Origin: Schmidtea nova
Lineage: Eukaryota
NCBI GenBank assembly: GCA_044892505.1
Contig: CM097882.1
Coordinates: 138,136,001 to 138,200,000, forward strand
DNA length: 64,000 nucleotides
Reading direction: 5' to 3'
Every line of letters starts with the position of its first letter. Position 1 is the stretch's first letter. The position numbers were made by a program, and so were the translations under genes. The notes beneath the pieces were generated by a model. That model was not told the DNA's origin and ran no database searches. It saw only the letters and a program-made list of their open reading frames with translations. Of the stretch, positions 16,858 to 41,516 are shown in pieces.

Positions 16858-17427
16858 AACTGATAAATTACATTCACTTTATGTATGATCCACGTACAAT
16901 TAACAATAATATGACTTTGTGCTTACGTATAAAATCTATCACCTTATGTGATTCTATGTGTACATGTAAATTGACATTTATCTGCTTAATTTTTATGTAT
17001 GATGATATAGGTGTAAATGTATAATTAATTGCTGGACGCAATTTTAGGGGTCCCCGAGTGATGTTGGGCCAGCCAAATAGAGGGAACAGTGAAATAAAAG
17101 TAGATTAATTAAAACAAAAAAGAGAAAAATAAGGTAAAAAGGGGAATATTTATTTATTAAAAGAAAGGAATAATATAGTAAAAATATAGATAAACTAAGT
17201 ACAAGCTATAAATAAAAATAAATGAATTGCTAGATATTAACGGGCCCAGGAGACATCTAAAAACAAATAAAATACAAATAATAATAATTAAAACCAAATA
17301 AAAGTACTTGTTATTGAATAATTGTTTTTGAAACCCGGACCTCCAAGGAAGAATACAATCTAAAAAATAAAAATTAATTAGAATCAAAAACAATAATTAA
17401 AAACCACCATGAAGCTGGCCGAACCTG

Positions 17428-17471
17428 ATTGGTCGGTCTAGACACGACTGATCAGTATAAATACTGATCAG
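17428..17471 (+). promoter_or_regulatory. Putative LTR core promoter: inverted CCAAT (ATTGG) plus TATAAA inside an 11-bp inverted repeat; second copy 42660-42703
   Basis: ATTGG at 17428; CTGATCAGTAT-AA-ATACTGATCAG at 17448-17471; AATAAA ~200 nt downstream. Confidence 0.55.
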
Positions 17472-18439
17472 ATTTTTCATAAAAAGAGAATAGAGACGTT
17501 GTTAGACTGTGTAAAAACTTAGACTTTGTTAGAATATAGATTTTAGACTTGTGACTTTGTTTGAGACAAAAATTTAGACTTGTGTTCAGACTAAAAATTT
17601 ACATTAGATTGCACATTGCCCCGACGACGATCACCGTTTAGACCGATTTTGATCAATAAATTTTCAGAATTCAATTGAGGTATTCTTGGTATATTTACGT
17701 TTATTGTTTGATATCGTTGTATTCATATGTCATTATCATATTATAATTTATTAGTTATCTCATTATGATTTATGTTATATTTAAACTATTTAAACTATCA
17801 TATTAATCTTGCGCCGTTGGGAGCTTTAGGTTCCCAAGGTGTCCGTCCGTGGCGTGGTGCTCGAGGGCTCCACACACGGTAAAGTAATAAATAACAAAAC
17901 ATAATTTTATTAGTGATGGTTGAGATTTGCACATGGGACACCCAACAAATCCGGGGAATTATTTTCTGATCGTTTTGGCTACGGAGGGGACGATAATTTT
18001 TTGATAAAGCTTAAAGATATGAAAGAATTTGTTAACCGGGAGGAGGCACAATTTTTCACCCTCACCACAGCGCAGCTGTTTAATAAACGTCTAATAAACC
18101 TTAGGAAAATTATGTCGACCGCATTTGATACAAAAGAGCGTTTTCGAATAAGCTAGGGATACATGACGTGAGAGAGCTTCCGTTTTGAGGTATCAATATT
18201 TTGAAAATCCAAGCAGACAAATCACCAATTCTTCGACTATAAAATTGATCGTAAACAGATAAATCTAAGTAGATACGAGAGTAATGTATACCGTAACAAG
18301 CAACAGTTTTTTCTTGATTTCAGCTAAGGTCTAAGGGGAAGGCAAATAATAAGGGTATCACGATGAGAGATAACATTTACTATGATTAATTATTGATGTA
18401 AATTGTAACTATTATCAAATTCAGCATCGTTTTGGAATC

Positions 18440-18907
18440 ATGACTAAGCATAGATACACTATCAAAAAACGACAAGAACGAGCCCGAGTTAGCCCATTAA
18501 AGCCGGCTCCTTTCGAGATTTTACAGCAAATCCATCAAAAAATGTGGGCATGGCGCCGAGAGCTTGAAACCGCCTGTCCATTTACATTATGGGACCATCC
18601 ACGGCACCACGTATGGTACCGGGGATGCGCTAGTTGGCCAATTATTCCAGACGAGGAATGCGAATCATGGCACGCCGCCTGGTTCGTCCTGATGTTGGAT
18701 AAGGGAGGATTCCCGAAATGTGTGATATATTGGGGGTTCATTCCAGCCTCTACCTTCAAGGAATTGGGGTTCAAGTTCAATACCGCAATACGACCCCTTC
18801 GAGAAGCTGAGAGGATCCGTTTTCAGCAGGCCTCGTCCAATATCAACACAAATTTGCAAATCAGATCGATATTTTCATATCGAGGAAAAATGACCGAAGA
18901 TGAATAG
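18440..18907 (+). CDS. LTR-encoded Trp-rich protein of unknown function (155 aa)
   Basis: ATG-initiated, preceded by a TTCAG acceptor-like site, identical in both repeats, more GC-balanced than its flanks. Confidence 0.6.
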   Translation: MTKHRYTIKKRQERARVSPLKPAPFEILQQIHQKMWAWRRELETACPFTLWDHPRHHVWYRGCASWPIIPDEECESWHAAWFVLMLDKGGFPKCVIYWGFIPASTFKELGFKFNTAIRPLREAERIRFQQASSNINTNLQIRSIFSYRGKMTEDE

Positions 18908-19228
18908 TTGAATCAATGGCCACATGTTTTTTTTAATTTAATAAATGTTTTAAAAAAGGTCTGAAGTGTCTCATTTTGTTAATAGTGTTGTCATGTAGAT
19001 TTAGTATTCTAGTTGTTATAGTCATTAGGAAATTCATTTAATAATCTCAAACTAGTTCAATAAATCCTTTGAGCCTTCAATAAATAGATAGTTAATTAAT
19101 TTTGCAACAAACTTAATAATTAAAAACATTAGTATGCATCTCGTTTAATGATAGTAAATAATAGACTAAATAAAATAACATTGTTGACAGGTCCTCCAGC
19201 GAATTTATCGTTATAATATTCAGACAAC

Positions 19229-19813
19229 ATGCCGACTTCAGAAAATTCCAAGAAAATCATGGGACAAATCCAAGAGAGGAAGTTGAGGGACCAGCAGCGT
19301 CAGATCAAGCGACTCACGGTCGCCAATGATGAATTGAGAGCGAAGTGGTTCTCACCCGAACAAATGAAGGACCAGTCGAAAAAACTTGAGCGAATGCAGG
19401 AAGCACTGGCCACAACCAAATTGGAACTAGATGCCGTCCAGCGAGAACTCCGAAATTGCCTAAACGCAGTAACAAGAAGTTACATCGACTCCGAATTACG
19501 AGCGCTAATCCGGCCGATCACGGCTCAGCGCTGGATACAATGCACTCACCAAGATGTCGCTTGCGGGACGGAAGAGGGAATCATCATGGCCCCCTCTCTT
19601 ACAACGGAAGATTTGCCTATTTTTCTCAGTGATCCCCCGAGAACAATAGCGCCAGCACCGGTCATAAACCAACAGCTTCGAAAACACCGAATGGGATCGC
19701 GACAGCGTCGTCGTCGCCGAGAATTTGCAAAGCGCCTGGACGAACAAATCCACCACTTGAACTCCTTAACCGAAGCGGAGTTGATTCAGGAGATTAGTCT
19801 GGAATTCGCTTAG
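19229..19813 (+). CDS. LTR-encoded coiled-coil protein with Arg-rich motif (194 aa)
   Basis: ATG-initiated, preceded by TTGTTGACAG, contains RKHRMGSRQRRRRRE, followed by AATAAA. Identical in both repeats. Confidence 0.65.
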   Translation: MPTSENSKKIMGQIQERKLRDQQRQIKRLTVANDELRAKWFSPEQMKDQSKKLERMQEALATTKLELDAVQRELRNCLNAVTRSYIDSELRALIRPITAQRWIQCTHQDVACGTEEGIIMAPSLTTEDLPIFLSDPPRTIAPAPVINQQLRKHRMGSRQRRRRREFAKRLDEQIHHLNSLTEAELIQEISLEFA

Positions 19814-20378
19814 GAAAACATCCATGTAAAATAACAACCTGTTTTTAGTATTTTAATAAAAGTATTTCTGTGTAAATTTTGTCTCTCATCGGGTGATGTT
19901 ACTAAATGAAATAAAATAACAAAAATGAAATCATCGAAATAAAAAAATATCGCCCCGAAATTTTCTCAAACCGACCGTTTATACGCAGGGACTGATTAAT
20001 TACATTGTAGATCAATTAAGGAAAGTCGTTGGGAAAGGCGTGTGATAGAGCATAAGGATATGTAGTACAAAATTTAGTAGAGCGAACATCCATAGAATGA
20101 AAATGCGTAAGACCTTCTATCGGCAGCAAGGACCCGAGGGAAGATAAATGGGGAGTAGTTTTGGCAACAAAGCTCACCTGCCCATCATTTTTCCCCCACC
20201 GTATGCAGTACCAACTTGACTAGTAGGGAATAGTCAAGGGCATACGCGTGTAGTAGTCATGTTATGTATGGTTATGGGCGTGGAATCCCTAGTATACATA
20301 TTCATCAATAGTCGTTCAATTAATGATTAACTATTTATTTGAATTACTTAAAACCCACCCATAACCCCAGCATAAATT

Positions 20379-20396: not shown

Positions 20397-20700
20397 CAAC
20401 TTTGTTTTATGCGGAAAAGGTGAACCCAATGACAACAGAGAAATTTAAAGTCAGAATTTTGTGAGTAGAAATAGTAACCGAAAGAGTAATCGAGATAAAA
20501 GTGAGTTGCGTGGAAATAGATAATTACAGACAGGGAATTAAAACAAATTAGTAGATAAATTGAACAAATGCATTCATAAATAACAGGTCGGGACGACAAT
20601 TTACCGAAACACGGGGGGAGGCTATAAAACTGTCAGAAACGAAAGACAGTACTACTTTTCGAATAATATTAACACAGTAATTAAATAAATTATCTAGGAA

Positions 20701-21162
20701 ATGGAGGAAAAACTGAAAGAAATCGAGGAATTTTTCAACACCGAGAACGATACATTTGAGACAGTCTGCGAAAAAATAACCCGAATAAGAGCATCCGAAT
20801 ATGAGGAACCTACGACACAAACGGAGGAAACAACTGAGTTAATAAAAATCATAGAGAAAGTAAATAAACTCGATATAAATACGCGATATAAATGGTACAA
20901 AGCACGATTAGAGGATGCCGAGTTGAATATCAGATGCCGACATATAGAACAGCAGTTAAGTCTAACATATAACCGATGGATGTCGCAAGGGGTCGAGGCA
21001 GCAAAACAATATAAACAATGTTACATATGCGAAGACAGTGAAATCCAAATAATGTTTTTGCCATGTGGACATTTTCGATTCTGTAAAAACTGTGCGAATA
21101 AGTGTGATGAGTGCCCCATGTGCAGTTTCTCTGTAGCTGATAGAATTGTAGTTTATTTATAA
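20701..21162 (+). CDS. Coiled-coil plus C-terminal IAP-type RING finger (putative E3 ligase) upstream of gag
   Basis: CYICEDSEIQIMFLPCGHFRFCKNCANKCDECPMC...IVVYL: IAP-like C3HC4 RING at the extreme C-terminus. Confidence 0.85.
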   Translation: MEEKLKEIEEFFNTENDTFETVCEKITRIRASEYEEPTTQTEETTELIKIIEKVNKLDINTRYKWYKARLEDAELNIRCRHIEQQLSLTYNRWMSQGVEAAKQYKQCYICEDSEIQIMFLPCGHFRFCKNCANKCDECPMCSFSVADRIVVYL

Positions 21163-22130: not shown

Positions 22131-22148
22131 GATATCCGGATATATAGT

Positions 22149-22359: not shown

Positions 22360-22909
22360 GTGATCGTCGACGATAATGAGAATAGTGCGCACCAGGAATT
22401 GAGAAATGCGAGTAAAGCTGATTATGCGACCTAAAATAATGCATGCAAGTAGAATCGAGAAATAGGAGCTGACCGGAAAGACCGGCAGAATTAATAATTA
22501 GAGGCTAGCAGAGAGAAAGATAAAGAGATAATAAAATAATAATCGAGTCAAATGACTCAGGGAATTAGAGCGTTCGAACGACAAATAAATTGGGAGACCG
22601 CGGGAAAAATAATTGATGTATTTTAATAACCGATAGATAATTGTTATGACTAAATAGATAATTGTGACTAGTATATAGATAATTTAAATAGACTTAAATA
22701 AAGGGGAATCTGGGAATGGGGAAAAATAATAGAAACCCAGTAATGAGAAGTCCCGTAAAAAGGGAATAAAAGCGCAACGATAACAATAGAGTATCGTTGA
22801 AGTGACATTTGTATTTTAGATAAATCAATCAAACCAAACCAAGCAACCAAGGAAGAAAAGAATCGGAACACGATAAGACAGGAAAATTGAGTATACAAAA
22901 GTAATCCCG

Positions 22910-25900
22910 TTGAGAAAAGGAGAAAAGAGTGTCATAATAAAACCAGCAGAAAAGAATAAAGCTACCAAGAATAATAATCAGAAAGGCCTAAAAGGAAGTA
23001 AAGCAAGGCAGATAATAATACAAAAGTCGATTATCGAAAACGATAAATTATCAGTAACAAGCAACAGTTCAAGCAACAAAGAAAATCAAGCAGAACCCGA
23101 GAGAAACCCAATAAGTGAAATAGAAGTCGACAAAACCAACAACGATTATATAGAAGAAATAGAAGACGAAGTAGAACAAGAAACAGAAAGTGACGATACC
23201 GATAACGATAGTAAAGCATCAGATAACGAATCAGCAAAAGAAACTGAGATCGACCGAAATTCGAGTGACGAACCTAACAGTGAACTAGAAACAAGAGGAA
23301 ACGAAAGTAAAATAACTACAGACAGCGGAATTGAAATGAGCGAACCCAGAGAAGAGATAAAAGACAAATTTTCCGGAGAACCGTTTAATGGAGATGCGAG
23401 TAAATTAGAAACTTTCTTAAAGGAATTTGGCATATTCGTGGAAGTATGCAAGTGGAAACCAGAAACAACTGTAAGCAGAATTCAGCTATATTTAAAAGAT
23501 AGCGCATTAGATCTATATTTGGAAGCAAAAAATGGAATTAATCCACCTACAAGTTGGTCAGCGATAAAGGACTTTTTCCAACAAACCTTCGGAATAAACA
23601 AAGTATTGAATGAGGCATTCACGGAATTCTCAATGAGGAAACAAAAGATAAATGAATCAAATGCGGTATATGCAAGCGAATTAAAAAAGTTGGCAAAGTT
23701 GATTTTCAATCAAGACAGTCCAATAAATGAAGAGTTAATGGCAGCTATCTTTGTGGGAGGATTAAGAAGACCCGACATAAGAGCGCAAGTTGGATGTCAA
23801 GGTTGTAAAACCATCGACCAAGCACTAGAAACAGCTAATAGATTTGAACTACACATGATAGGAAATGACGGTAGAATCTATTTAGCTATGGATACAGCAC
23901 AAAACGAACAAGAAGTGAACCTGAATAACCACATTCCAAATTCACAACAATTAAACCGACCACCACCGCAACGAAGGAATGAAGGGAATAAAGTATCAAA
24001 TTACGGAAATCAAAACAATTACAACCCCCAAGGACCAACGAAACAATGCAAAACATGTGGGAAATTGGGACATTGGCAACAAGAATGTTATCAGAACTTG
24101 AATTGTGGAAAATGTGGAGTAAAAGGGCATTCAGAGAGCAGAGGTTACACAATAACCTGTTTTAATTGTGGACGACCTGGACATCTATCAAGAAATTGCG
24201 GACAAAGAAGCAATCAACGAGGAAACTGGCAGAATACCGGAAACCGACAAAACTATGGAAACCAACCAACTGGTGGAAACCGACAGAATTATGGAAATCA
24301 GCCAAATAATGGAAACCAACCGGAATACGGAAACCAACCAAATAGTAATAATAATAACCAAAATAAAAATACCACTAAAGAGATACATTTAATGCAAGAG
24401 GTTCAAAGATTGACGGAGCTGATAAACAATACAAACAGAGGAAATCAGCAAACAGGTCAACAACAAATCAATATGATGAGAAAAATAGAAAGCGAAAACG
24501 AACAATTGAATCGGGAAAGTCAAGCACGACATGCTCAGGAATGGGCAAGAATACAAAGAGAAGAGGAACAAAAACAGCAAGAAAGAGAACGACAACCTCT
24601 AAGAATTAATATGATGAGAGCAACCAATCAAACAAATACCCACGAGAAAGAGACTGTACCAGAAATAAATCCAACAAACCCGAATCCAACCAACAACGAA
24701 GGCCGAAAAGAGATAATACAAGAAGATGAAGAAGCAGAAAAAGAAACAGAAAAGGAAGTAGAAAAAGAAGGGAACCAAGAAGAGAAAAGGAAACTCGGGA
24801 AAAGAGGAATGATGGTAATTTTGCCAAACAAGCACGTGTTTCGATTCCAATATAACATAAAGGAAGAAGTAGAAATATTGTTCAATAAAGTGAATGAAAT
24901 GGCTCCAGGAGTAACGAAACTGCCCAGAGAAGCATTCCTAAAAATAGAAGGTGCACCAGAAGTAAAATTGAAACTAACGGATACATGGGAAAACATGGGA
25001 GTAGTAGAGACAAAAAGAAATGTGATGGTAATCAAGGAAATAGAACCAGAAGGAATTCCATCGCCAGTGCGTCACGAAACACGAATCAGTCGAATATTTA
25101 AAGGGAAAATGATACGAAGACGGTTGGGAGAAATAGACGAGTTAGAACGAAAAATGAGAAAGGTCGAAGTAGTAGACAACAAGAGTGAATCAACACAAAA
25201 AGCTATTAAAAGTGAAACAAGACCAACGGAAAATACACCAAGCGAAACCAACCAAATAAAACACATTAACATGTTGAGAGGCCAGGCAAAGAATTTTTCA
25301 GACGACGAAGAGGATAGTGACGTCAGTAGTCTAGCAGGGGACATGCTAGACGAACCGGAAATTGAAGACAAAAAGATAGAAGTAGTAAAGACACCAGAAA
25401 CTATTCAAGTAAAAGAAGACGAGATCCAGAAATTATTAGATAATACGCTAGAAGTAATATATAATGAGGAATTCATTGACAAGAAACACTATAGAAAATT
25501 CATGAGAGCAATATTACAAATGAACTATAAAGAGTGGTTACCAGGCCGGGAAGTAGAAACACTAAGCCAATACGTAGGAAAATTATTAAAAGAACCACTC
25601 CATGAATATATAATCCTAATTGAGATAAAAACATGTTTGCCAAGGATTTGGATCAAAACTCCACTCACGGAAGATATTTATCAATGGGTAGAAGATAGAT
25701 TAGGGAGTTCATATAAAAACAAATTCCTCTATTCACAGAATGGACTAGTGAAGAAAAGGACGCATTTGATAGAAACAGGCATATGGCCAGGAGAGGTGAC
25801 AACATTATCGATATGCGATGATAAGAGAGAAGAGAACCTACAAGAAGTAGCAAAGGAAGCAAATATGTGTTTCGAGAAGAAGATAAAACCACGGTTAGAA

Positions 25901-28162
25901 TATGAGAAAGGACGAATCTTACGAGGAAATCTAAATTCCATGATAGAACAAATCATCCCACAAATCAAAAAACATAGAAAGGAGTTAATGAGAAGCGAAT
26001 ACGAAAAGTTGAAACGATGTATCGAGTGCATACGTGACACAAGTCACACGAGATGGTCACAGATCTCATACGGAAAAGTAATTGCCAAAATGGGAAAAGC
26101 AATGTTCAGACAAGGGAAAATAACAGATCTAAAAATTTCAGTGGAATTGCCTAATGAGGATACCAAAGAAATTGAAGTGGTAGCAGATTGTACCATAAAA
26201 GAATTAGTAAATGTCATCAACGAGACACTATTACAAAGAGAACCAGAAGAAGAATGGGAGGATGACATAATCATGAAATATAACGAACATGTATTATGGG
26301 ATCACGATGAAAGACGGCTATATAAAATTGGTATATGGGATAATCACCAAACCATCCACGTTATCAGAATGGACGATACACCAAGAGAAACTGCTAAAGA
26401 TGAGAAAAGAGAACGGGAACGACAAAAAGAAGTTGTGCATAAATTACAACAAATAGTAGACATCTATCGAAATTGGCGGATTTGGCCAGAATGGGAAAAT
26501 GTATTAGAGGAACTCAATCTCAACAGACGATTACGAACACCCGTAGAAAAGAAATGGAACGAACGAGGAAAATGTTGGGAACCAAAAGCAGGCGAATACG
26601 AAGAGGAATACGAAATAAGCATAGAAGACGATCACAAACCGGAAACCGGAAGAGTCTGTATGGTAACAAGAAAAGCCATGCCAGCGGATTTAGACGGACC
26701 AGAAACGGCAACCATGTGGTTGGAAAGAGAAAAACAAAAAACGGAAGAATTTGTCGAAATATTAAAAACCAATGCTCATGGCAAGAGAAAATTAGTAAAA
26801 GGTCTCGCAGATTTTTTCGTAGTTAATGGAGAAGACATAACCTGCCTGCGTAAAGTAGCAAAAGCAATCGCCGAATACAAAAGAGTTAACGAGTGGTGTC
26901 CAGAACAATTGGATCAAGTAATTAAAAAATGGAGAAACCAAGAATTCTCGCAGGAATCGCCACAGAAAGTACACCTAAGAATAGTATATCCGAACCAAGA
27001 AAAGGAAGAGTTTTGGGTAGGGATAGCGGAGAAAGTTCGAGACATTAAAAAGAAATTGAGATATGAACCACCATTCCATTTACAACACCAAGGACGATCA
27101 TTAGATAACAGCTTGGAAATTGGAATAACGCCAGCGCAATTAGATATCGCAAATACATTGACAGTGGCAGCAATAGCAGGTCAACCATTGAAATTGAAAG
27201 AGGAAAAGAAATCAAAAGGAAGTATGAGTACGCCGAGCCCAATGAAATCGGTAATGACTCCAGGAACAAGCTCAGAACAAGCTAGAACAACACCAAGAGA
27301 GACAAGAGAAAGAACACCACCAGAACCATACGACGTAGACGAAATTTTTACAGATAGCGATGATATGTTAGAGGAGTTAATAGAGCTAACAAAAGAGAAA
27401 GATGATAATATTTTCGAAAGAATCCAAGAATTACCAACAGCAATACCGGTAACCAACACCGAAGATGAAGTCGAACAAGAAATAATAATAGAAGAAGTAA
27501 ATGAAATAGCAGAAGAGGAAGCAAGGAGGGCAAATGTAGAAAATGTACAATTCACACAAGAAATGGAAAGATGGTTAGAAGAAAGAGCCAATGAACCAAG
27601 AGACGTCACAGAAGAAACTGGACGAGAATCAAGATTAGTAGAAACGGGCACGACAATGGATAAACGACCTAGAGGTAGACCCAAGATAGATCCAGCAAAT
27701 GTAGTTATAAAATCAAGAGAGGAAAAAAGACGGGATCAATGGGATTTGTGTTTAAAGAAACTAAATAAAATAGCCGAAACGAAAGAAAAAGAAACAACAC
27801 AAACATATCAAGGCGAAGAATGGATATCAAAGATGTTAATGGAAATACTGGCAATAATCGATCCGGAATTAAAAAAATGGTGGAGAATAAATGAAATAAG
27901 CGAAAGGGCGAAATCACTGCATAGCGCCATCGCACCAATCCTACCAGAACTAATAAAAGAGAAGACAAGGTCAAACCACCTAGATTGGCAAGGAACCACG
28001 ATGTTGATAAAGAAGTTAACGGAAGGAGCAGAGACGGATAACAAATATTTAATAGCTATGGCATACACCATTTACAATCTGCTGACACTGAGTAGAGGTC
28101 GACTGAAACCCACAGCACTCGAAAGACATATAAAGAATACAGCCAAAATTATAGAGAAATAA
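22910..28162 (+). CDS. gag: Gag with large C-terminal extension (first ATG at 23336): capsid-like core, CCHC knuckles, Q/N repeats, putative ubiquitin-like domains, AT-hook
   Basis: MSEPREEIKDKFSGEPFNGDASKLETFLKEF gag start; knuckles CKTCGKLGHWQQEC and CFNCGRPGHLSRNC plus one degenerate knuckle; KRPRGRPK. The track start at 22910 is TTG. Confidence 0.9.
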   Translation: MRKGEKSVIIKPAEKNKATKNNNQKGLKGSKARQIIIQKSIIENDKLSVTSNSSSNKENQAEPERNPISEIEVDKTNNDYIEEIEDEVEQETESDDTDNDSKASDNESAKETEIDRNSSDEPNSELETRGNESKITTDSGIEMSEPREEIKDKFSGEPFNGDASKLETFLKEFGIFVEVCKWKPETTVSRIQLYLKDSALDLYLEAKNGINPPTSWSAIKDFFQQTFGINKVLNEAFTEFSMRKQKINESNAVYASELKKLAKLIFNQDSPINEELMAAIFVGGLRRPDIRAQVGCQGCKTIDQALETANRFELHMIGNDGRIYLAMDTAQNEQEVNLNNHIPNSQQLNRPPPQRRNEGNKVSNYGNQNNYNPQGPTKQCKTCGKLGHWQQECYQNLNCGKCGVKGHSESRGYTITCFNCGRPGHLSRNCGQRSNQRGNWQNTGNRQNYGNQPTGGNRQNYGNQPNNGNQPEYGNQPNSNNNNQNKNTTKEIHLMQEVQRLTELINNTNRGNQQTGQQQINMMRKIESENEQLNRESQARHAQEWARIQREEEQKQQERERQPLRINMMRATNQTNTHEKETVPEINPTNPNPTNNEGRKEIIQEDEEAEKETEKEVEKEGNQEEKRKLGKRGMMVILPNKHVFRFQYNIKEEVEILFNKVNEMAPGVTKLPREAFLKIEGAPEVKLKLTDTWENMGVVETKRNVMVIKEIEPEGIPSPVRHETRISRIFKGKMIRRRLGEIDELERKMRKVEVVDNKSESTQKAIKSETRPTENTPSETNQIKHINMLRGQAKNFSDDEEDSDVSSLAGDMLDEPEIEDKKIEVVKTPETIQVKEDEIQKLLDNTLEVIYNEEFIDKKHYRKFMRAILQMNYKEWLPGREVETLSQYVGKLLKEPLHEYIILIEIKTCLPRIWIKTPLTEDIYQWVEDRLGSSYKNKFLYSQNGLVKKRTHLIETGIWPGEVTTLSICDDKREENLQEVAKEANMCFEKKIKPRLEYEKGRILRGNLNSMIEQIIPQIKKHRKELMRSEYEKLKRCIECIRDTSHTRWSQISYGKVIAKMGKAMFRQGKITDLKISVELPNEDTKEIEVVADCTIKELVNVINETLLQREPEEEWEDDIIMKYNEHVLWDHDERRLYKIGIWDNHQTIHVIRMDDTPRETAKDEKRERERQKEVVHKLQQIVDIYRNWRIWPEWENVLEELNLNRRLRTPVEKKWNERGKCWEPKAGEYEEEYEISIEDDHKPETGRVCMVTRKAMPADLDGPETATMWLEREKQKTEEFVEILKTNAHGKRKLVKGLADFFVVNGEDITCLRKVAKAIAEYKRVNEWCPEQLDQVIKKWRNQEFSQESPQKVHLRIVYPNQEKEEFWVGIAEKVRDIKKKLRYEPPFHLQHQGRSLDNSLEIGITPAQLDIANTLTVAAIAGQPLKLKEEKKSKGSMSTPSPMKSVMTPGTSSEQARTTPRETRERTPPEPYDVDEIFTDSDDMLEELIELTKEKDDNIFERIQELPTAIPVTNTEDEVEQEIIIEEVNEIAEEEARRANVENVQFTQEMERWLEERANEPRDVTEETGRESRLVETGTTMDKRPRGRPKIDPANVVIKSREEKRRDQWDLCLKKLNKIAETKEKETTQTYQGEEWISKMLMEILAIIDPELKKWWRINEISERAKSLHSAIAPILPELIKEKTRSNHLDWQGTTMLIKKLTEGAETDNKYLIAMAYTIYNLLTLSRGRLKPTALERHIKNTAKIIEK

Positions 28163-28240
28163 ATAGAACCGTACATCATCAGTAAAGGAGGATGGGAAAC
28201 ATTCACAAAAACGAACCAAAAGAAAACCCAAGCCAAAAAT

Positions 28241-31200
28241 ATGAAAAGGAAATTCGAAGAGATATTGGGAGAATTGGAAAAGGAAAAGTCGGGAACAGGA
28301 AACGGGAAATCATCACTAAACTTGAGTTCTATCATTATGATGATGTTAATATGGATGATTAGTACTGACGGAGCAACAGCATTTGAAGTATTCGATTGTG
28401 ATCAAATGGCATTAGGTGAGAAATATTCACTACGAGGGACAGAACAATGTAAGGACGCAACCCCAACGGAGCTAAAAACATTAAAAAAGAGACAATTATA
28501 CCACGTATATCAGGAAGCTGAACTGATAAGAACAATGGTCAGAGAATGCAAAGTTTATAAAACCAGATTTGCTTTTTATTGTGGGCACCGCCATTATTCA
28601 GCAATCGTGATGCCAGGAACGGAAAGAGAATCGGTAATGCTGCAAGGAGAAGACTGTGAAAAATTATTTAAACATGGGGAAGTAGAGACTAGAGATAGAG
28701 TAAAGATAAGAGGAAAAACGGGAGTGATATTGCAACAAACATATTATGTAGCAGGAGCTATTACGGGAGGAGAAGGGTACTGCCAAGGAGCAACATATCC
28801 AATATTCGGAGTAGCAGCAACAAACCTAGTGGTAATAGATACGTATACAGTGGAACTAAAAACGTACGAGGCATTCTTCGATCCAACGACGGGAGAAATG
28901 AAAACTCTACCTATGTGCAAAATCGAGTCAAACACTTGTCAGACTGGTATGTCAACCCTAACCTACCAGATACGAGGAAAGGAATGTCAACTACAACTGT
29001 TAAAGGAAGCAGAATTCGATGAGATACAAGGGAAAACCTTCCAGGAGGAAGAAGAAGACGAGGCAGCAAGAGGAAAAATACTTCAAGACACAGTACGAGG
29101 AGAGAAAAAGATTGAAACACGAACACAAGAAAAGCAAATCAAAATGAGAAATACACCAACGGTACTAATTACCTCAGATGCAGATATCGGAATGAGGTTT
29201 GTAAAAGGAAAAACAGCCTTGAAATGCGGAGTAGCCATGTTGGAAACCAACTACCCCGGCATTTTCGTATCGAAACAAGAAGTACCTAGTGCGAAACGCA
29301 AAGTGCACACGAACGATGTTAAATTACACCTGTACATGAACAATAAAATGGATTTTCTATTCCATAGAGGACAAGCGTCACTACAAAAAGTGTATTACGA
29401 TTTAATTAACAACGATTGCATATTAAATAGGGAAATATTAAAGACAAAATTAGCAGTTGCAATCACAAACCCGGATTGTGCAATGCCATTATTACCATTG
29501 AGAGAAGGTCATTTTGGAAGGGTAGTCGGAGAAGTCATGTATGTATACATATGTAAAAAGACAAATGCGAAGGTAGCGACAATGACAAAATTACAACCAG
29601 GGCAGTGTACTAACGAACTAGAAATCGAATACAAAGGGAAGGTAAGATATGTGCAACCAGTGACAAGAATCATAAATCCAGTAAGCTTCGAACCAAATCC
29701 TTTCAATTGCAGCAACGCATATGGACCACTATACCAAAAACCAGACGGAAATTGGGTTATGTTTCCGTCAAGAACAGAGGTACCAGCACCAAGGGAATTT
29801 GAATTGATGCAACTATCAAAAGGACGAAAATTTAAAGACGTAGATGTAAGTAATATGGGATTCTATAGCGCAAAAGACTTAGAGGCAGCGAGGCAAAACA
29901 TACTATTTCCAGCAAGAAGGGAAGCGGTGCTATCCAGTATTGTAACAATAACAGGAGGAACAAATTACCAAGGTGGACCAAATTACGAATTATTATTGTC
30001 ACCAGCCCACTTTAAGAAGGCAACGGAAAACATGATGAAAGCGATGTGGGGAAGATTTTTAATATTTGGACAAATGATGGCAGGAATACTTGGTGTTATA
30101 CTAATTATACAAATAATACGGGTAATAATAACGCAAATGTTAGCCTGTTTTGACATCTATAAAAGAGAAAAGAAAGTAAATTGGAAATTGGTGGTAGGAT
30201 TCTTACCATTTTTGGCTAAAACAATGGTATTACACGGTCATTCAAAAGATATTCACCGAATAAAGAGACTCCTAAAAATACTGGCAAAAATGAAAGGAAC
30301 CGATGAAGAGGTGGGACGAAAATTTAAAAAGATAATGAATAACGAGCAAGCAAGACAACAACTAAAGAAAGAGAGAAAAGGACTATGGGAAAGAATGAAA
30401 GGGTACAGAACCCAAGACGATTCCAGTGACGACGATGATGATGATAACGAAGGAGGTCAAGTATTTAAAAATCAAGTACCACAGTATGTCGAAAAGAATC
30501 CAGCGGAAATGTGGAAATGTTACGCACCCCCACCAACCATGTACCAAGAACCAACACCAGGGATGAGACAAAATACAATGCAAATGATGCCGATGACAAA
30601 CATATATCCTATGATACCAGAAGACTATAGAACGAGACGGTGCAGAAGCGTAGATCCGCAAGGAGACTCACATACAATTGCAGTAATGTCATCAAACACC
30701 GGTCCAGTATTAACTACAACAATCGAAATTAACGGAAGGGAAATTGAAGCGATGATTGATACAGGAGCAAATATCTCAGCAATAGATATAAAATGGATAC
30801 CACAAGAACAAAGACGGGATATTGAGAGAACCAACGTTCACGTAATAGCATGCAGTAAAGAAGTAGTAGAAGTTGCCGGAAGATGGTGGGTAAAGATAAA
30901 ACATCAAAACACAGAAATCGAAACGTACGTAGCAGTAATACCAGCACTGAGCGTACCATGCATTATAGGCACAGATTTAATGCCAGCATTATTTAAAGAA
31001 ATAGTTATTGACCTCGGAACAATGAGATTAAAGGATAGGACAGGACAGATATGCGCAATAGAAGCAAAAGTAACAAGTTCGAAACAAATAATTGTACCAG
31101 CACGGAGAGAGAAAATATGTTTCGTAAAAATAGATCCTACAATAGAAGGTGATATGATCTTTGAACCCAGTAAAAGATTTGAAAAGAGAAAGTCGTTGCC

Positions 31201-34200
31201 AATGGCAAGGGGATTAGTGAGTGCGAATGACAACGGAGAAATCCCAATAAATGTAGTAAATTTCGATGAAGAGGATAAAATAATTTATGAAAACGAAAGA
31301 CTAGGTAAACTAACTCCAATGATAGATATCGAAATACCAATAAAAGAAGGAGTAAAAGAGGAGGAACCCACTTGGAACATTGATAGCCAACTATTAAATG
31401 AGGACCAAAAAAAACAGCTAGAAAGATTACTGATAGAATATAAAGACATATTCGCAGCATCCGATTTAGATCTAGGGACATGCGACGTCACACTACATAC
31501 GATTCCACTTACAGACGAAACGCCGATTGCGTTAAGACCATACAAGTTAGCTGAAGCGCAAAAATCAGTAGCCGAAGCAGAAGTACAGAAAATGCTAGAC
31601 GCAGAAGTAATTGAACCAAGCTGCTCACCGTGGCAATTCCCAGTTGTAATGGTGAAAAAGAAAGACGGAACACAACGATTTTGTATTGATTATCGGAGAT
31701 TAAATGCGGTAACAAAACGGGATACATACCCATTACCAGACATCAACGAGATGTTATTGACATTACAAGGAGCGGCATACTTTACATCATTAGATTTGAA
31801 AAGCGGATACTGGCAAATTAAAATGAAGGAAGAAGACAAAGAGAAAACTGCTTTCACGATCGGAAGAGACTTGTACCAATTTAGGAAAATGCCATTCGGA
31901 CTAACCAATGCGCCAGCATCATTTCAAAGATGTATGAATTTCGTTACCCACGGCATAAAACAATGCATGGTTTACATTGACGACCTACTGATCTACTCAA
32001 GCACATTTGAACAACACATCCAAGATATCAGAGATGTATTTGTTAGATTGAGACAATGGAAACTCAAGCTCAAACCATCGAAATGCGATTGGGCAAAAGA
32101 GAAAGTGACATTCTTAGGACATATTGTGTCCGCAAAAGGAAAGGAACCAGATCCCAGAAACATTGATAAAGTAAAAGAATGTCCAGTACCAAAGACGATA
32201 ACGCAGATCCAAGAATTTCTCGGATTATGCGGTTACTATAGAAAATTCATAAAGGATTACGCAGGAATTGCAAAACCAATCCAGGAGCTAGTAAAGAAAG
32301 ACGTATCGTTCATATGGGGAAGCGAACAACAAACAGCCTTCGAAACATTACGAGATAAGTTAATAACTGCACCAATATTGGTTCACCCGGATTTCAAGAA
32401 GCCATTTTTACTCGCAACCGACGCAAGTGGATATGCAGCAGGAGCAGTGTTAGGACAATATGATGACGAGGGAAAAGAGCGGGTAATCGGATATTATAGC
32501 AGAACATTCAAGAAACACGAGAAGAATTATTCAGTAACGGAAAGAGAAGCATTGGCAATAATATTAGCAATAAAACACTTTAAATATCTATTATGGGGAC
32601 ACGTTATATGCATAACCACGGATCATCAACCACTGGTATGGCTAGGACAACATAAGGAAACATCCAGCAGGTTGATGAGATGGGCGATGCAATTACAAGA
32701 ATATTCACCAGATATAAAATTCAAATCAGGAAAAGCGAATGCCAACGCAGATTGCATGTCAAGATTAACGTTTCCAGAATTAACAGACCCAGAAGTGCAA
32801 AGAATATGCATAATGATAGCAGAGGATTTGGATTTCAGCGAGTTAAAGAAAGATCAGCAAGAGGATAAAGAACTAAGACCCATCATAGAATTCCTAAGCT
32901 CACGGAATATGGATGTATTCAAAGACAATGCGGAGTTAAAAGAACACATGAGGAAATACCAACATCGATACACAATAGAAAAAGGATGGTTATTAATACA
33001 GGATGGAGAAAAACGATTAATGTGTCTGCCAAGTAATAGACGAAAAGAGATAATAACTCAATACCATGACGGAAAGTTGGGAGGACACATGTCCGATAAG
33101 AAAACATTAGATCGCATGAGACAAAAATATTATTGGCCAACAATGGACGAGGACGTAAAGGAATGGATAAAGAACTGTTTAACTTGTGCCACAAGAAAGG
33201 ATAGTGGGAAGAAATGGAAAAATCCCTTAAAACCCATGCCAATACCAGCGGAACCAATGACTACCATTGCGATGGATGTAATAGGACCATTGCCAGAAAG
33301 TTTAAACTGGAATCAATATATATTGGTAATAACGGATTATTTGACGAAATTCCCTGAAGCATTTGCGATGCCGGATCAAAAAGCAAAGACCGTAGCAAGA
33401 ATTTTAGTAGAGGAAATATGTTGTCGATACGGAACCCCGAAACAAATACTAACAGATCAAGGAACAAATTTTATGAGCGAAATATTAGATGAAGTAACAA
33501 ATTACTTCAGAATAGCCAAATTACGAACGTCACCATATCATCCGCAAACTAATGGACAAACGGAAAGATTTAACGGCACATTGATTCGAATGTTATCCAA
33601 TTATGTAAGCAAACACCAAACAGATTGGGATGAGTACATAAAGCTATGTCTAATGGCATACCGAATGTCGATACACGCAGCAACAAAATTGAGTCCATTT
33701 CAATTAATGTATGGAAGGGAATGCAATATGCCAATAGATCTTGAATATCAACCACCTTTGTCTCAATATATGGAGGAAGATGATTACGTCACCAAATTCA
33801 AAGAACGAATGCAAGAGATATGGAAGACAGCAGAACTAAACATAAAGTTTTACCAAGAAAGTTACAAGGACCTACACGATCAAAAGAAAAATGTTAAAAC
33901 AAATGATCTTAAACCCGGAGATTGGGTAATGATAGAAACCCCAGAAATAATACCAGGAACCGTTAAAAAACTACAAAGACCAGGAAAAGGCCCTTACGAA
34001 GTTATATACAAAAAGGAAAACAATGTGAAGGTAAAACTTGTTAATCGACCATTGATACGACCAATATACGTTAATACATGCAGATGTAAAAAAGTACCAA
34101 AGACAATAACCACAGCGCCAGAAGAACGAATAATAACCAGATCCCAGACAGCCAGAATGAATATGCTCAGAGCAACCAATGAAAGTACCGAAGCAGAAAA

Positions 34201-37200
34201 CAATCAACAAGAAAAAAGAAACAAGGAAATTGTACTAAAAGCCAGGGAAATAATGGGAAAATGGCATGTCAGAGACGATATATTAAGAGATATACAATTG
34301 ATAATTAGTGATTACGCAAGGGGACTACCAACAAAACCAGTCATTTCAGAACTATTGGAGAAAATTCCAGAAATACTTTCACTACAAGACATAGGAGGAC
34401 AACCAGCATTACATAACGCCATAAAATGGGGAGAAGTAGAGAGAGTAAAAGAATTTCTAAAAATCGCTAAGGAAACAAACCAACACCTTGGTTTTGGGAA
34501 TAGCGAACAAGAAACACCATTAATGGTAGCAGCCATCTACAAATCGGATAAAGCAATAATAGACCTTTTGATAAATGCCGATTTCAACTGGACGGAACGC
34601 GATAGAGAAAACAAAACAGTCTTGAATCACGCAATATGGAGCTCAAATCAGATAATGCTCAAACAAATAATCGAGAAGGCCACTTGGGAAATAGACGAAC
34701 TGATCAAAGGTGATATAATCAAGGAGGCAATAAAAATCGGTAACTGCAAAACAATACGCAAGCTAATAAAGTGGAAAAGATCCGAAAATGATACATGGGT
34801 ATTAAATATAAACGAGGTATACAGTGAAGGACAAAACGCGTTATTACAATTCCTATTAAAATTCGTCTGTGATCAGAAAACACTGTTAACGCTATTAGAT
34901 AGAGGAAATATCATAATGTCCAAAAACAAAGAGGAGTGTAAATTCAAAAGTGAAAAAGAAGCATTATTCAGGAATATTAGGGAATGGTGTACAAAATCGC
35001 TAACCAAGACGATAACTTACAAAGATATATCCAATTTTCAAGACAAATACAAAACGGTGGAGGAGGAGTATGACAAACTAATAGACATATTAAACCACCC
35101 CGAAAGATGCAAACAATTCCTATGTCGAAAGGAAAGAGAAAGCAAAAGGAAATTTACACCACTTTTCAGCGCAGAGGTACCTTATCAAGAAAGGTTAGAT
35201 GCGATACAGGACAAAGCAAAAAAACTATTACCAGAATTCGAAAATTCTAAACATACACTGGAGATACTCGGAGCAATTGTGGAAAAGATACACGCATATG
35301 CGGAAGGAACCTACAATGAAAACGATATGATGCTCATAAAAAGAGAAATGCCAGTGACTTTCTTATTAACAAAGAATGGAGTATTGCCAATACATAGAGC
35401 CTTACGAGCAGGAAAAGATAGGAGGGTAGTCGAAATTGCACGGTTGATGCAAGATTGCGGAAGTGACATGAACATGAAAGATAAAAAGGGAGATACCCTC
35501 ATGATATTCGCAGCAAGAGCGAACACAAAAACCCGAGTGTTACAGGAACTGTACGAAGCAGGTGCAGGACTCATGGGAAGAACGAACAAAGACAGCTCAA
35601 TACTAGACGTAGCGTTGTTAACGCACAATTGGGAGGTAATAAACTTTATAAAAACAATCACAAATCAGGAGGAAATAGAATACCTTACAAGGATAGTTAA
35701 AAAAGCTAGCGTACATTCCATGATGCATAACGCTGAACTAACCGAAGCAATACTCAATTGGATGAACCCAAACACCAATGAACCAGCATTCAGGATCAAC
35801 GAGTTCATGGAACAAGGCCAAAATTTGTATATAAAGTGTGCATTAATAATAAACAAATGGCCAAAGATAATAGACATCTTCATGAGAAGAAAAGATTTGC
35901 GATTCACAAACAACCCAAAGGAAACAGAACGTACGGACAAATGGAAAGAACTAATGAAAACGTACCTTAATAATTGGATAAAAGCCAAGAAAGAGATTCT
36001 AGATTGTAAATTAACCGATAAGGAAATACCTAAGCAGGCAGTAACACAAGAATATGAAGCAAGTATACTCACAACCATAACGTATGAAAAAATGATAGAA
36101 GCAATTAATGTCGAGGACGACATTTTCAACGACCAAAGGGGAGGCGACAATACAGGAAACGACGACGATAGTACTCGAGAAAATCCAGAGGATCATGAGT
36201 TATCAGATGAAGAGGACAGTGAAGAGAAAGGAAGGGACACAGAGAAAAATGATAAGAAAAATGAATTTGGGAAACAAAGAAACAACAACTATAAAAATAA
36301 AAACGAAGCAAAAAGAACAAGCTACAAACAAACAATAAATCCATTCTTTAAACCAGAACTATTATTACTAACGGTAATCATGACCTTAATTAGTCCCACT
36401 CAAGGAATGATATGTGAAGAAAGAACGACAATACAAATTGGAAACGCAAAAGGAATCGAACGAGTATGTTGGTCAAAAAAGGACAAAATATCGGGACAAA
36501 ATAGTCCAATGGATTGCAGGATCTCAGAATACGAACAAGAAATCATAGAGATCGATGACCTAGAGCTAGATACTTGGTACAGAATGTGCACCGTTCGGAA
36601 ACCAAAGGATCCGAGATCACATAAGACAATTGCATGTGCAAACTACCTAACACCCAAAATAACCATAACAGTACAGCAGACATCCAAAGGAGACTACGCC
36701 GTAGGAAAGTGTGGAAAAACAGAGACCCAAGGAACAAAAAACAAAAAACCCCAGACAATAGATAGACGAACAACGCCAACTATACGAATTACCATAGACA
36801 GGCCCGAAGCAAGAGTAACCACAAATGAAACCAAAAGAGTGACCTACCAAACAGAATTACTATGTTTAGCACTCATATTAACAATGTTAAAACGGTTAGA
36901 AGAAGGGATAGACATTGACACAATGGCAGTAACAGAGATGAACGACACCCAAAACACCAACCCAAAGTGTTGGGCCAGAAGCAACGAAGAAATTGGCGTA
37001 AGCGAAATAAAGACGAGTCGGAAAAGGAAAACAAATAAAGTAACCAAGATATCAGAAGTAAAAGCAGACAGGACGTATGAACTATGTTTACTAGAAAAAG
37101 AAAGACACAAGAAAGGAACGACAATTTGTAAAACATTTCAACCTGGGGAAACAATAAAGTTCATAAGACGAGGAAGAAAAAATATACGCACCAAACGGAG

Positions 37201-38299
37201 AACAACTATAATGTTAGAGTTAACCGGGATAGAACCGGACGTCAAAGGCGTATGCTGGAAGAAGCAGGAAAAGAAAACAAACCAGAATACACCGCCGCAA
37301 TGTCGAACAAACAGAGGAACAACCACAATACAGATAGAAGGGTTAGAAAGTAATCAAACGTACGAAATATGCCTGATCAGGAAGAGCGACAAAATAACAG
37401 TAAATGAACTGGAATGCAAAATATATAAAACACCCAGCAGAACAAGAATTGGAAAGACAACGCGAAAAAGCAGAAGACAACGGAACAAAGGAAAAGCGAG
37501 GTATACCACTACTTTTGAACCTAATGGACAACAGAAAAACCAAGAAATACAAATAAGAACCGAAAAGAATACTACAGCAACTCTTATACTATGGAGAATA
37601 GACAATAAAACGTTAGAAATATGTTGGGCAGTAGTTCAGGAACAAAAAGAAAGACAGCCACGATCCTGCGAAAACGTAAAAGGAAAAGAAGAAATGAGTA
37701 TCAAAAATCTGAAATTTAATAGAGAATACGAGATATGTGCGGTAGAAAAGACGGACATATTGGGAAATCAGCAGGAAAGATGCGAAACGTACTACACACC
37801 GGTAAACTCAACGTCCAAAGGGAAAGTGAGAAAACTCGAATTTAAAGAATTAAGTCAGACAACGAAACAAATGGACGCAGAACAAGTAGTAATAGACCCT
37901 TACGCAAGATGGACGCCGGAAGAAGTAATTAAAGAAGTTAAAAGAAAACAACAAGAACGAGAACAACTACTAAATAAACTAAAGGGACAATACGGACCAA
38001 TGATTAACCAGAGTGAAATTACGAAGATGGACGTAAACAAACAAGTTAGAGAACTAATTGGTCTAGGAATACTAGCAGCAACTATTCCAGTAATAACAGT
38101 ATTATTAATAATATGGATATATGATGTATTCAACAAGAAACCAATAACACATTGGCCAGATATAAAAATTATGAACTACAGAATAGAATTACCGGAAGAA
38201 GTACAGAAAGAATTTCAAAGGAGGACGAAAGGCAAGGAATTTTGGAGACAAATAGAAGATGAGGAGCGATACGAAGGAAAGACAGTGATGGTGATATAG
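28241..38299 (+). CDS. pol: 3352-aa polyprotein: Env-like glycoprotein, protease, RT, RNase H, integrase, ankyrin repeats, FN3-like type I membrane protein
   Basis: MIDTGAN (30758), YIDD (31973), LLATDASG, HDGKLGGH...CLTC, MDVIGPLP/TDQGT/NGQTERFN, GKGPY, ankyrin motifs, and several hydrophobic segments. Confidence 0.95.
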   Translation: MKRKFEEILGELEKEKSGTGNGKSSLNLSSIIMMMLIWMISTDGATAFEVFDCDQMALGEKYSLRGTEQCKDATPTELKTLKKRQLYHVYQEAELIRTMVRECKVYKTRFAFYCGHRHYSAIVMPGTERESVMLQGEDCEKLFKHGEVETRDRVKIRGKTGVILQQTYYVAGAITGGEGYCQGATYPIFGVAATNLVVIDTYTVELKTYEAFFDPTTGEMKTLPMCKIESNTCQTGMSTLTYQIRGKECQLQLLKEAEFDEIQGKTFQEEEEDEAARGKILQDTVRGEKKIETRTQEKQIKMRNTPTVLITSDADIGMRFVKGKTALKCGVAMLETNYPGIFVSKQEVPSAKRKVHTNDVKLHLYMNNKMDFLFHRGQASLQKVYYDLINNDCILNREILKTKLAVAITNPDCAMPLLPLREGHFGRVVGEVMYVYICKKTNAKVATMTKLQPGQCTNELEIEYKGKVRYVQPVTRIINPVSFEPNPFNCSNAYGPLYQKPDGNWVMFPSRTEVPAPREFELMQLSKGRKFKDVDVSNMGFYSAKDLEAARQNILFPARREAVLSSIVTITGGTNYQGGPNYELLLSPAHFKKATENMMKAMWGRFLIFGQMMAGILGVILIIQIIRVIITQMLACFDIYKREKKVNWKLVVGFLPFLAKTMVLHGHSKDIHRIKRLLKILAKMKGTDEEVGRKFKKIMNNEQARQQLKKERKGLWERMKGYRTQDDSSDDDDDDNEGGQVFKNQVPQYVEKNPAEMWKCYAPPPTMYQEPTPGMRQNTMQMMPMTNIYPMIPEDYRTRRCRSVDPQGDSHTIAVMSSNTGPVLTTTIEINGREIEAMIDTGANISAIDIKWIPQEQRRDIERTNVHVIACSKEVVEVAGRWWVKIKHQNTEIETYVAVIPALSVPCIIGTDLMPALFKEIVIDLGTMRLKDRTGQICAIEAKVTSSKQIIVPARREKICFVKIDPTIEGDMIFEPSKRFEKRKSLPMARGLVSANDNGEIPINVVNFDEEDKIIYENERLGKLTPMIDIEIPIKEGVKEEEPTWNIDSQLLNEDQKKQLERLLIEYKDIFAASDLDLGTCDVTLHTIPLTDETPIALRPYKLAEAQKSVAEAEVQKMLDAEVIEPSCSPWQFPVVMVKKKDGTQRFCIDYRRLNAVTKRDTYPLPDINEMLLTLQGAAYFTSLDLKSGYWQIKMKEEDKEKTAFTIGRDLYQFRKMPFGLTNAPASFQRCMNFVTHGIKQCMVYIDDLLIYSSTFEQHIQDIRDVFVRLRQWKLKLKPSKCDWAKEKVTFLGHIVSAKGKEPDPRNIDKVKECPVPKTITQIQEFLGLCGYYRKFIKDYAGIAKPIQELVKKDVSFIWGSEQQTAFETLRDKLITAPILVHPDFKKPFLLATDASGYAAGAVLGQYDDEGKERVIGYYSRTFKKHEKNYSVTEREALAIILAIKHFKYLLWGHVICITTDHQPLVWLGQHKETSSRLMRWAMQLQEYSPDIKFKSGKANANADCMSRLTFPELTDPEVQRICIMIAEDLDFSELKKDQQEDKELRPIIEFLSSRNMDVFKDNAELKEHMRKYQHRYTIEKGWLLIQDGEKRLMCLPSNRRKEIITQYHDGKLGGHMSDKKTLDRMRQKYYWPTMDEDVKEWIKNCLTCATRKDSGKKWKNPLKPMPIPAEPMTTIAMDVIGPLPESLNWNQYILVITDYLTKFPEAFAMPDQKAKTVARILVEEICCRYGTPKQILTDQGTNFMSEILDEVTNYFRIAKLRTSPYHPQTNGQTERFNGTLIRMLSNYVSKHQTDWDEYIKLCLMAYRMSIHAATKLSPFQLMYGRECNMPIDLEYQPPLSQYMEEDDYVTKFKERMQEIWKTAELNIKFYQESYKDLHDQKKNVKTNDLKPGDWVMIETPEIIPGTVKKLQRPGKGPYEVIYKKENNVKVKLVNRPLIRPIYVNTCRCKKVPKTITTAPEERIITRSQTARMNMLRATNESTEAENNQQEKRNKEIVLKAREIMGKWHVRDDILRDIQLIISDYARGLPTKPVISELLEKIPEILSLQDIGGQPALHNAIKWGEVERVKEFLKIAKETNQHLGFGNSEQETPLMVAAIYKSDKAIIDLLINADFNWTERDRENKTVLNHAIWSSNQIMLKQIIEKATWEIDELIKGDIIKEAIKIGNCKTIRKLIKWKRSENDTWVLNINEVYSEGQNALLQFLLKFVCDQKTLLTLLDRGNIIMSKNKEECKFKSEKEALFRNIREWCTKSLTKTITYKDISNFQDKYKTVEEEYDKLIDILNHPERCKQFLCRKERESKRKFTPLFSAEVPYQERLDAIQDKAKKLLPEFENSKHTLEILGAIVEKIHAYAEGTYNENDMMLIKREMPVTFLLTKNGVLPIHRALRAGKDRRVVEIARLMQDCGSDMNMKDKKGDTLMIFAARANTKTRVLQELYEAGAGLMGRTNKDSSILDVALLTHNWEVINFIKTITNQEEIEYLTRIVKKASVHSMMHNAELTEAILNWMNPNTNEPAFRINEFMEQGQNLYIKCALIINKWPKIIDIFMRRKDLRFTNNPKETERTDKWKELMKTYLNNWIKAKKEILDCKLTDKEIPKQAVTQEYEASILTTITYEKMIEAINVEDDIFNDQRGGDNTGNDDDSTRENPEDHELSDEEDSEEKGRDTEKNDKKNEFGKQRNNNYKNKNEAKRTSYKQTINPFFKPELLLLTVIMTLISPTQGMICEERTTIQIGNAKGIERVCWSKKDKISGQNSPMDCRISEYEQEIIEIDDLELDTWYRMCTVRKPKDPRSHKTIACANYLTPKITITVQQTSKGDYAVGKCGKTETQGTKNKKPQTIDRRTTPTIRITIDRPEARVTTNETKRVTYQTELLCLALILTMLKRLEEGIDIDTMAVTEMNDTQNTNPKCWARSNEEIGVSEIKTSRKRKTNKVTKISEVKADRTYELCLLEKERHKKGTTICKTFQPGETIKFIRRGRKNIRTKRRTTIMLELTGIEPDVKGVCWKKQEKKTNQNTPPQCRTNRGTTTIQIEGLESNQTYEICLIRKSDKITVNELECKIYKTPSRTRIGKTTRKSRRQRNKGKARYTTTFEPNGQQKNQEIQIRTEKNTTATLILWRIDNKTLEICWAVVQEQKERQPRSCENVKGKEEMSIKNLKFNREYEICAVEKTDILGNQQERCETYYTPVNSTSKGKVRKLEFKELSQTTKQMDAEQVVIDPYARWTPEEVIKEVKRKQQEREQLLNKLKGQYGPMINQSEITKMDVNKQVRELIGLGILAATIPVITVLLIIWIYDVFNKKPITHWPDIKIMNYRIELPEEVQKEFQRRTKGKEFWRQIEDEERYEGKTVMVI
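28331..30231 (+). other. Env-like domain: chuvirus/Monjiviricetes-type fusion glycoprotein with signal-like and transmembrane segments
   Basis: IIMMMLIWMI...ATA|FEVFDC; YSL...C; ECKV...R...YCG..HYS; AG...G.G.C.G..Y; CG...ETNYP; LYMNNKMDF; C...REILKTKL; GEVMYVYIC; CTNEL; ILFPARREAVL; TM FLIFGQMMAGILGVILIIQII. Motif and Cys order recognised by eye. Confidence 0.75.
34390..35660 (+). other. Ankyrin-repeat region downstream of integrase
   Basis: GQPALHNAIKWGE, ETPLMVAAIY, KTVLNHAIW, VLPIHRALRAG, GDTLMIFAARAN, SSILDVALLTHN. Confidence 0.8.
36353..38130 (+). other. C-terminal membrane protein: signal-like segment, four Cys-containing FN3-like repeats, TM anchor
   Basis: PELLLLTVIMTLISPTQG; four repeats of the form xCW...(C)...I..L....Y.(I/L/M)C...C; TM LIGLGILAATIPVITVLLIIWIY. 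Confidence 0.65.
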
Positions 38300-41434: not shown

Positions 41435-41516
41435 ATAAAGCGGAAAATATATTTTTGTAAATAATTGTATGAAATGTAGTGTCAAATTGTATTGATCTAT
41501 CTGTAAAGAAAACAGT

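Follow-up and report, generated by a model that had tools for sequence, protein, structure and literature searches.

We analysed a stretch of 64,000 nucleotides (nt) of the Schmidtea nova genome (GenBank assembly GCA_044892505.1, contig CM097882.1, positions 138,136,001 to 138,200,000 of the forward strand), here called the window. It carries a very large long terminal repeat (LTR) retrotransposon whose polyprotein frame (22877..38299; all features given in this form are on the plus strand) comprises 5,140 codons plus a final stop and is interrupted by a single internal stop, a TAA at 28160..28162, which is amino acid (aa) 1762 of the stop-to-stop frame. Judged from the sequences of its relatives, this TAA is almost certainly a point mutation private to the present copy, a decayed member of a family with a continuous gag-env-pol frame of about 5,100 codons. 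The stop is ordinary decay, not a regulatory readthrough signal. A sequence-only reading of the same DNA had seen one frame split by one TAA, and this was borne out in the context it had read, as were its count of 4,988 codons for 23,336-38,299 (internal and terminal stops included) and its downstream open reading frame (ORF) of 3,352 aa, which begins at the next ATG after the TAA (28,241; 78 nt separate the two). That reading had offered two explanations; a nonsense mutation private to one copy of a single long ORF stands, and programmed readthrough falls, since a sense codon is present in 77 of 78 copies.

Where an element exists in many copies, an in-frame stop in one of them needs to be checked against the others. 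A nucleotide search of the window's genome with a 601-nt query, in which the best 40 of 513 candidates were scored, returned 30 loci, one of them the window itself. All 29 sister loci carry the same sense codon, one base away from the window's TAA, and all 29 keep the ATG at 28,241 with neither a stop nor an indel in the 78-nt gap, so that the single-frame model survived a look for lesions in this gap. The exact pattern including the TAA has one match in 1.25 Gb, at the window itself. When the codon was left open, the flanking pattern occurred at 78 places, and the 77 others all carry one identical sense codon. The same holds for a sibling family (81-83% protein identity), in which a sense codon was present in 10 of the 10 copies fetched; 22-24 of its 26 gap residues are identical, and the methionine encoded at 28,241 is again kept in all ten.

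For a survey of the whole frame, every fourth of the 77 copies was taken (n = 20, partly overlapping the 29 sisters described above). There was no stop or frameshift position common to two copies; five of the 20 copies were fully covered and unbroken, and one further copy was unbroken at 94% cover. Within the 78-nt gap, this survey met two breaks, a stop at 28,187 and a frameshift at 28,239, each confined to one copy. One surveyed copy (35% cover, 76% identity) was then dropped, and all later counts rest on 19 sisters. At least one private stop is present in 10 of these 19, and stops make up 17 of their 834 private codon changes (2.0%) versus 1 of 45 in the window copy. The 45 private changes of the window copy, 21 of them synonymous, resemble those of true sister copies. 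Two more lesions are private to the window copy: a frameshift near 39,525, in an accessory TRAF-like gene, is absent from all 19 sisters, and the middle zinc knuckle of Gag, complete in all 19 (three knuckles each), is broken. Open frames were counted by hand among the best 150 of 3,294 candidates, one 5,140-aa row with a stop inside its match being left out; frames of at least 5,000 aa were found for 33 of 85 other hits with at least 90% identity and for 14 of 64 hits at 76-81% identity.

Purifying selection acts on the frame both before and after the stop. When variants shared among the 19 sisters and the window were scored as synonymous:non-synonymous, the ratio was 63:16 before the stop (26,399-28,159), 100:6 in Env and 121:12 from reverse transcriptase to integrase, while a 3' non-coding control gave 0:5. 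The 78-nt gap alone gave 2:1, too few variants to be informative. Constraint was much weaker in the ankyrin region (51:52) and in the C-terminal region (53:65) than in Env or Pol.

Near the start of the frame lie a Retrotrans_gag motif and three CCHC knuckles (23489..24199; PF03732 at E 5.5e-4, under the cut-off, and PF00098 at E 5.9e-10). The upstream piece had been taken as Gag; the Gag motif and knuckles are indeed there, but they end at about aa 441 and some 1,300 more residues follow. The stop itself lies in what may be a BCL-2-like domain (27890..28207). A hidden Markov model (HMM) built from the 15 best Pfam Bcl-2 loci of this genome found its best match at aa 1672-1777, with 7.4 bits versus at most 3.2 in 50 shuffles, whereas direct sequence searches of Pfam and PDB with the domain that surrounds the stop (X at the break) gave no Bcl-2 match. 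A GGW motif a few codons past the stop resembles BH2. A third multi-copy family of the same genome, with open frames of up to about 3,080 aa, has a Bcl-2 domain recognised at the Pfam level, and the Env that comes directly after it is 37-39% identical to that of the window. Taken together, these matches lend modest support to a BCL-2-like domain that contains the stop and directly precedes Env. Ubiquitin-like domains, seen by eye in the interval between Gag and Env, found no match in Pfam or in a ubiquitin-domain search.

Downstream of the stop, the first internal signal-like hydrophobic segment (28310..28384; aa 1812-1836 by hydropathy), predicted to be the Env signal, lies 23-29 residues past the methionine at 28,241, which fits the earlier suggestion of an internal signal near the downstream N-terminus. 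It is followed by Env, a viral fusion glycoprotein with a C-terminal membrane segment (28376..30163; PF24664 Monjiviricetes_fusion, E 9e-68; membrane segment aa 2393-2429), by protease, reverse transcriptase, RNase H and integrase in gypsy order (30716..33544; Pfam RVP, RVT_1, RT_RNaseH, Integrase_H2C2 and rve), and by an ankyrin-repeat region with an approximate end (34409..35656; Ank_2, E 3e-17). The order in the family is Gag, the BCL-2-like domain, Env, protease, reverse transcriptase, RNase H, integrase and ankyrin repeats, all in one frame. In seven distant homologues (34-39% Env identity), Env was in frame with at least 380 upstream residues in all seven. A CCHC knuckle lay upstream in six, an alignment to the window's Gag was obtained for four, a signal-like segment stood at the start of Env in six, and hydrophobic segments followed integrase in five. 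Three distant homologues also have two or three aspartyl-protease-like domains each.

Several points weigh against reading the stop as a private lesion in a frame translated as one product. The scheme of single-product translation and cleavage is drawn from hydropathy; the BCL-2-like call is weak (7.4 bits, with no direct Pfam or PDB match); and an assembly error at the TAA base would look the same as a true mutation. The homologue search covered proteins of 1,857-5,912 aa, and a stand-alone Env could not surface in it for that reason. Moreover, since the methionine at 28,241 is conserved in the 29 sisters and the 10 sibling copies, there is room for a separate start of Env-Pol at this position.

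The last point leads to the alternative that survives best, namely that the family frame is continuous and Env-Pol is nevertheless also made separately from ATG 28,241, by a spliced or internally started RNA. The position of the conserved methionine shortly before the signal-like segment speaks for such a start, but one conserved methionine is unremarkable at 82% overall identity, the 26 codons preceding it are as conserved as the rest, and no pyrimidine-rich splice acceptor is visible by eye before the ATG. We consider a separate start rather unlikely. It is compatible with a private mutation at the TAA and, if true, the window copy could still supply Env and Pol.

More doubtful still is an error in the assembly consensus, in which case the locus would truly have the family's sense codon. 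The TAA was seen only once, and contigs from all four public runs, which come from one study, show only the other letter at its position; contigs lose rare variants, however, and because of this they cannot decide between a mutation and an assembly error. Over 22,400-30,400 these contigs gave seven low-depth joints, none of them with GT..AG ends, and a look for expression listed four runs, none of them from RNA. Arguing against an error are the 45 private codon changes (21 synonymous), which look like those of true sisters, and the share of stops among them, which equals that in sisters.

Programmed stop-codon readthrough as a control of the Gag:Env-Pol ratio, on the model of the gag-pol junction in gammaretroviruses, where a UAG is followed by a pseudoknot, can be dismissed: the geometry recalls it in the window copy only, with one in-frame stop between the Gag-bearing part and Env-Pol and a conserved gap, but the TAA is found in 1 of 78 copies and in none of 10 sibling copies, a lineage of young copies sharing it is absent from this assembly, the stop cuts the BCL-2-like domain about 1,300 codons past Gag and not at a border between structural and enzymatic genes, and a conserved downstream RNA structure, which the sequence-only reading had named as a check, was looked for in three (pseudoknot-free) folds around the stop, none of which beat 200 shuffles (z 0.70 and -0.01 for the RNA 3' of the stop). 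The copy survey, with a sense codon in 77 of 78 copies, thus rules it out.

If the TAA is a private mutation, the window copy would yield a truncated product only and would need a helper copy for mobility, and the Gag:Env:Pol ratio would not be set by readthrough.

The sequence-only reading had counted the frame from the first ATG (23,336). The claim of one frame holds, but the conserved frame extends well 5' of that ATG. A coding-like stretch of about 150 codons (22877..23335) shows a synonymous excess, with 11:3 shared variants in 23,000-23,335 among the 19 sisters and the window. Its net length change is zero or a multiple of three in 17 of 19 sisters, with in-frame length variants at 22,939-22,975, and the upstream stop is kept in 19 of 19. 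There is no ATG in any frame within the 590 nt from 22,746 to 23,335, compared to about 8.6 expected. As about 150 codons are conserved upstream of the first ATG, these data suggest a non-AUG or spliced start of the polyprotein. Two near-cognate codons in this stretch, ATT at 22,886 and TTG at 22,910, are conserved in all 19 sisters. Another frame holds an upstream ORF of 17 codons, which starts at 22,716.

At the other end of the frame, a second signal-like segment precedes four FN3-like repeats with cysteines, after which comes a membrane segment (36341..38140; from hydropathy, repeat alignment and a structure model). The repeats of this ectodomain have invariant cysteines, and the ectodomain carries seven sequons. 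One repeat was modelled as a seven-stranded sandwich with a predicted local distance difference test score (pLDDT) of 84. In Foldseek, FN3 domains matched it best (E 0.008-0.03, none at E 0.001), and VIA gave an FN3 domain at Z 7.8 (root-mean-square deviation 2.8, 77 residues aligned) with pilin/CnaB sandwiches within 1 Z and none at Z 8. The Atlas score for FN3 likeness, 0.87, is a lead only. The repeats had no match in Pfam, a viral fold library gave no match at E 0.001, and a single-sequence fold of the whole C-terminal ectodomain reached a pLDDT of only 40. The sibling family has further repeats and frames of about 5,640-5,690 aa (best 150 of 3,294 candidates). We predict that the C-terminal module is a second surface protein.

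Outside Pol, the frame has four strong hydrophobic segments (aa 1812-1836, 2393-2429, 4489-4513 and 5057-5088). Probably the whole frame yields one polyprotein, which is cleaved later. On an intact copy, ribosomes would first produce Gag and the BCL-2-like domain on the cytosolic side; Env would then be threaded into the endoplasmic reticulum (ER) by the first internal hydrophobic segment, to be followed by a signal peptidase cut; the membrane segment of Env would return protease, reverse transcriptase, RNase H, integrase and the ankyrin repeats to the cytosol, where the element's own protease would release the enzymes and ankyrins; and the second internal signal would export the FN3-like membrane protein. 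The four segments would thus be read as signal, anchor, signal and anchor, with Env and the C-terminal ectodomain in the ER lumen. In flavivirus and hepacivirus polyproteins, the capsid, an internal signal and the envelope protein stand in one frame and the enzymes are cytosolic. This topology serves as an analogy for how the intact frame might work; these are unrelated RNA viruses, and processing in the present family is predicted. A more tentative proposal, to which we give somewhat less than even chances, is that of a flavivirus-style polyprotein crossing the membrane twice, with a non-AUG start about 140 codons before the first ATG and a second signal that releases a separate FN3-repeat surface protein. 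As part of the same proposal, this protein might be a receptor-binding partner of Env or an immune decoy; the repeat number differs between families.

The element as a whole measures 28.5 kb, with an internal region of 21.9 kb. Its 5' LTR (17062..20372; TG...CA, 3,311 bp) begins where those of six of six sisters do (17,061-17,062), and its 3' LTR (42294..45604) has two differences from it. Directly before the 5' LTR lies a duplicate of the 3' internal end (16163..17061; 899 bp, one difference from 41,395-42,293), which is absent in six of six sisters and lengthens the direct repeat in a self-comparison by 899 bp. It is likely the remnant of a tandem or recombination event. Four hits of the sibling family on one contig (C1) are spaced about 33 kb apart (best 150 of 3,294 candidates), a spacing consistent with tandem arrays. 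No target-site duplication was found for the element. For this reason, and because 899 bp of the 5' repeat are a duplicate of internal sequence, we rejected LTR identity as a clock: the two differences (in 3,311 bp) may reflect a more recent duplication and not the time of insertion.

A sequence at 20,377-20,395, 4-5 nt past the 5' LTR, resembles the complement of tRNA-Pro and is presumably the primer-binding site. It is followed by an accessory ORF with a terminal RING finger (20698..21162; PF13920, E 9.9e-12), which we take to be IAP-like. The leader at 21,638-22,377 holds three tandem-repeat arrays with units of 30, 40 and 42-55 nt, whose copy number varies among sisters. Downstream of the polyprotein frame lies the TRAF-like gene (38873..40256; MATH_2, E 4.7e-21), with a coiled coil and, by eye, RING/zinc fingers. 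Two further accessory ORFs (40,346-41,434 and 41,496-42,089) have no Pfam match at cut-off; the latter has, by eye, a signal-like start and a membrane-like segment. ORFs within the LTR (18,386-18,907 and 19,217-19,813, with their copies in the 3' LTR) likewise have no Pfam match at cut-off.

Other elements were seen elsewhere in the window. On the minus strand, an element at 469-6,200 lies between direct repeats of about 1 kb (619-1,608 and 5,174-6,170), and its ORFs combine HSP90 fragments with a ubiquitin domain and DUF1759. A near-perfect palindrome of 387 bp (6,739-7,125) adjoins an N run. A small gypsy element with 0.92-kb LTRs that are 98% identical and a Tc1/mariner-type transposase ORF are present at 52,980-59,457 and 50,692-51,648 (minus strand), respectively.

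A giant single gag-env-pol frame is already known in planarian flatworms. As described in the section on Burro of PMC6431247, Burro-type elements have a single gag-env-pol ORF1 of 4,873 aa or 5,140 aa; they include Burro1-4 / GYPSM1 in Schmidtea mediterranea and a Burro-like element in Dugesia tigrina, the latter a reconstruction, and decayed copies with stops are described. Compared by this published description only, the window element is Burro-like in architecture, showing the features tested. These are: a gypsy-like LTR element in which env sits between gag and pol in the same frame; a single ORF1 of about 4,900-5,100 aa, seen in the window's family and broken in the window copy; retrotrans_gag with CCHC knuckles (here PF03732 under and PF00098 over the cut-off); protease, reverse transcriptase, RNase H and integrase in that order, then ankyrin repeats; a BCL2-like domain directly before Env (here the weak own-genome HMM match); an Env related to mononegavirus-type fusion proteins; and MATH/TRAF cargo, here the accessory gene at 38,873-40,256. 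There are differences as well. According to the same section, Burro reaches 25 kb internally and more than 30 kb in total, and the window element, at 21.9 kb and 28.5 kb, is giant too but stays below 30 kb; MATH, which is in a downstream accessory gene here, is inside ORF1 in S. mediterranea and upstream in D. tigrina; and the D. tigrina element has two knuckles and not three. The 5,140 aa of the D. tigrina ORF1 equal the stop-to-stop length in the window by stated length only. BIR, ubiquitin/SUMO-like and dUTPase-like domains, which PMC6431247 reports from profile-profile searches, had no Pfam match in the pieces that we scanned. Neither the FN3-like membrane module nor the start-codon problem is named in the section on Burro of PMC6431247, and our literature searches brought up no paper that gives Burro-like elements an FN3 module, processing by signal peptidase or a start at a non-AUG codon, although the primary Burro papers may already describe the module or the start.

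GAG-ENV-POL errantiviruses with an HSV/gB-type Env have been reported from Nematoda, Bryozoa and Platyhelminthes (PMC13524379). They share with the window element a gypsy Pol, env between gag and pol, and an ectodomain between a signal/membrane segment and a membrane segment. Their Env is gB-type, whereas that of the window is known by its Pfam Monjiviricetes_fusion match only. The survey in that work left out LTR pairs separated by more than 14 kb; the words "Burro" and "fibronectin" are absent from its text. According to PMC11410931, PMC8532177 and PMC13465017, Burro is abundant and PIWI-controlled; these also contain a second-hand mention of Burro aiding regeneration through an IAP gene, and PMC13465017 reports, second-hand, that Burro affects planarian stem-cell survival.

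The stop that was flagged is of little weight in itself, since it marks the decay of just one among some 80 closely related copies. What the copies do provide is confirmation of the single gag-env-pol frame, which is seen in dozens of natural copies belonging to three families of the same genome. The family also raises the question of how capsid and enzymes are balanced without recoding. If the twice membrane-crossing scheme is true, this would be a retrotransposon with a two-component envelope made from one frame, and the predicted second surface protein, together with the non-AUG start, would add to what is described for Burro.

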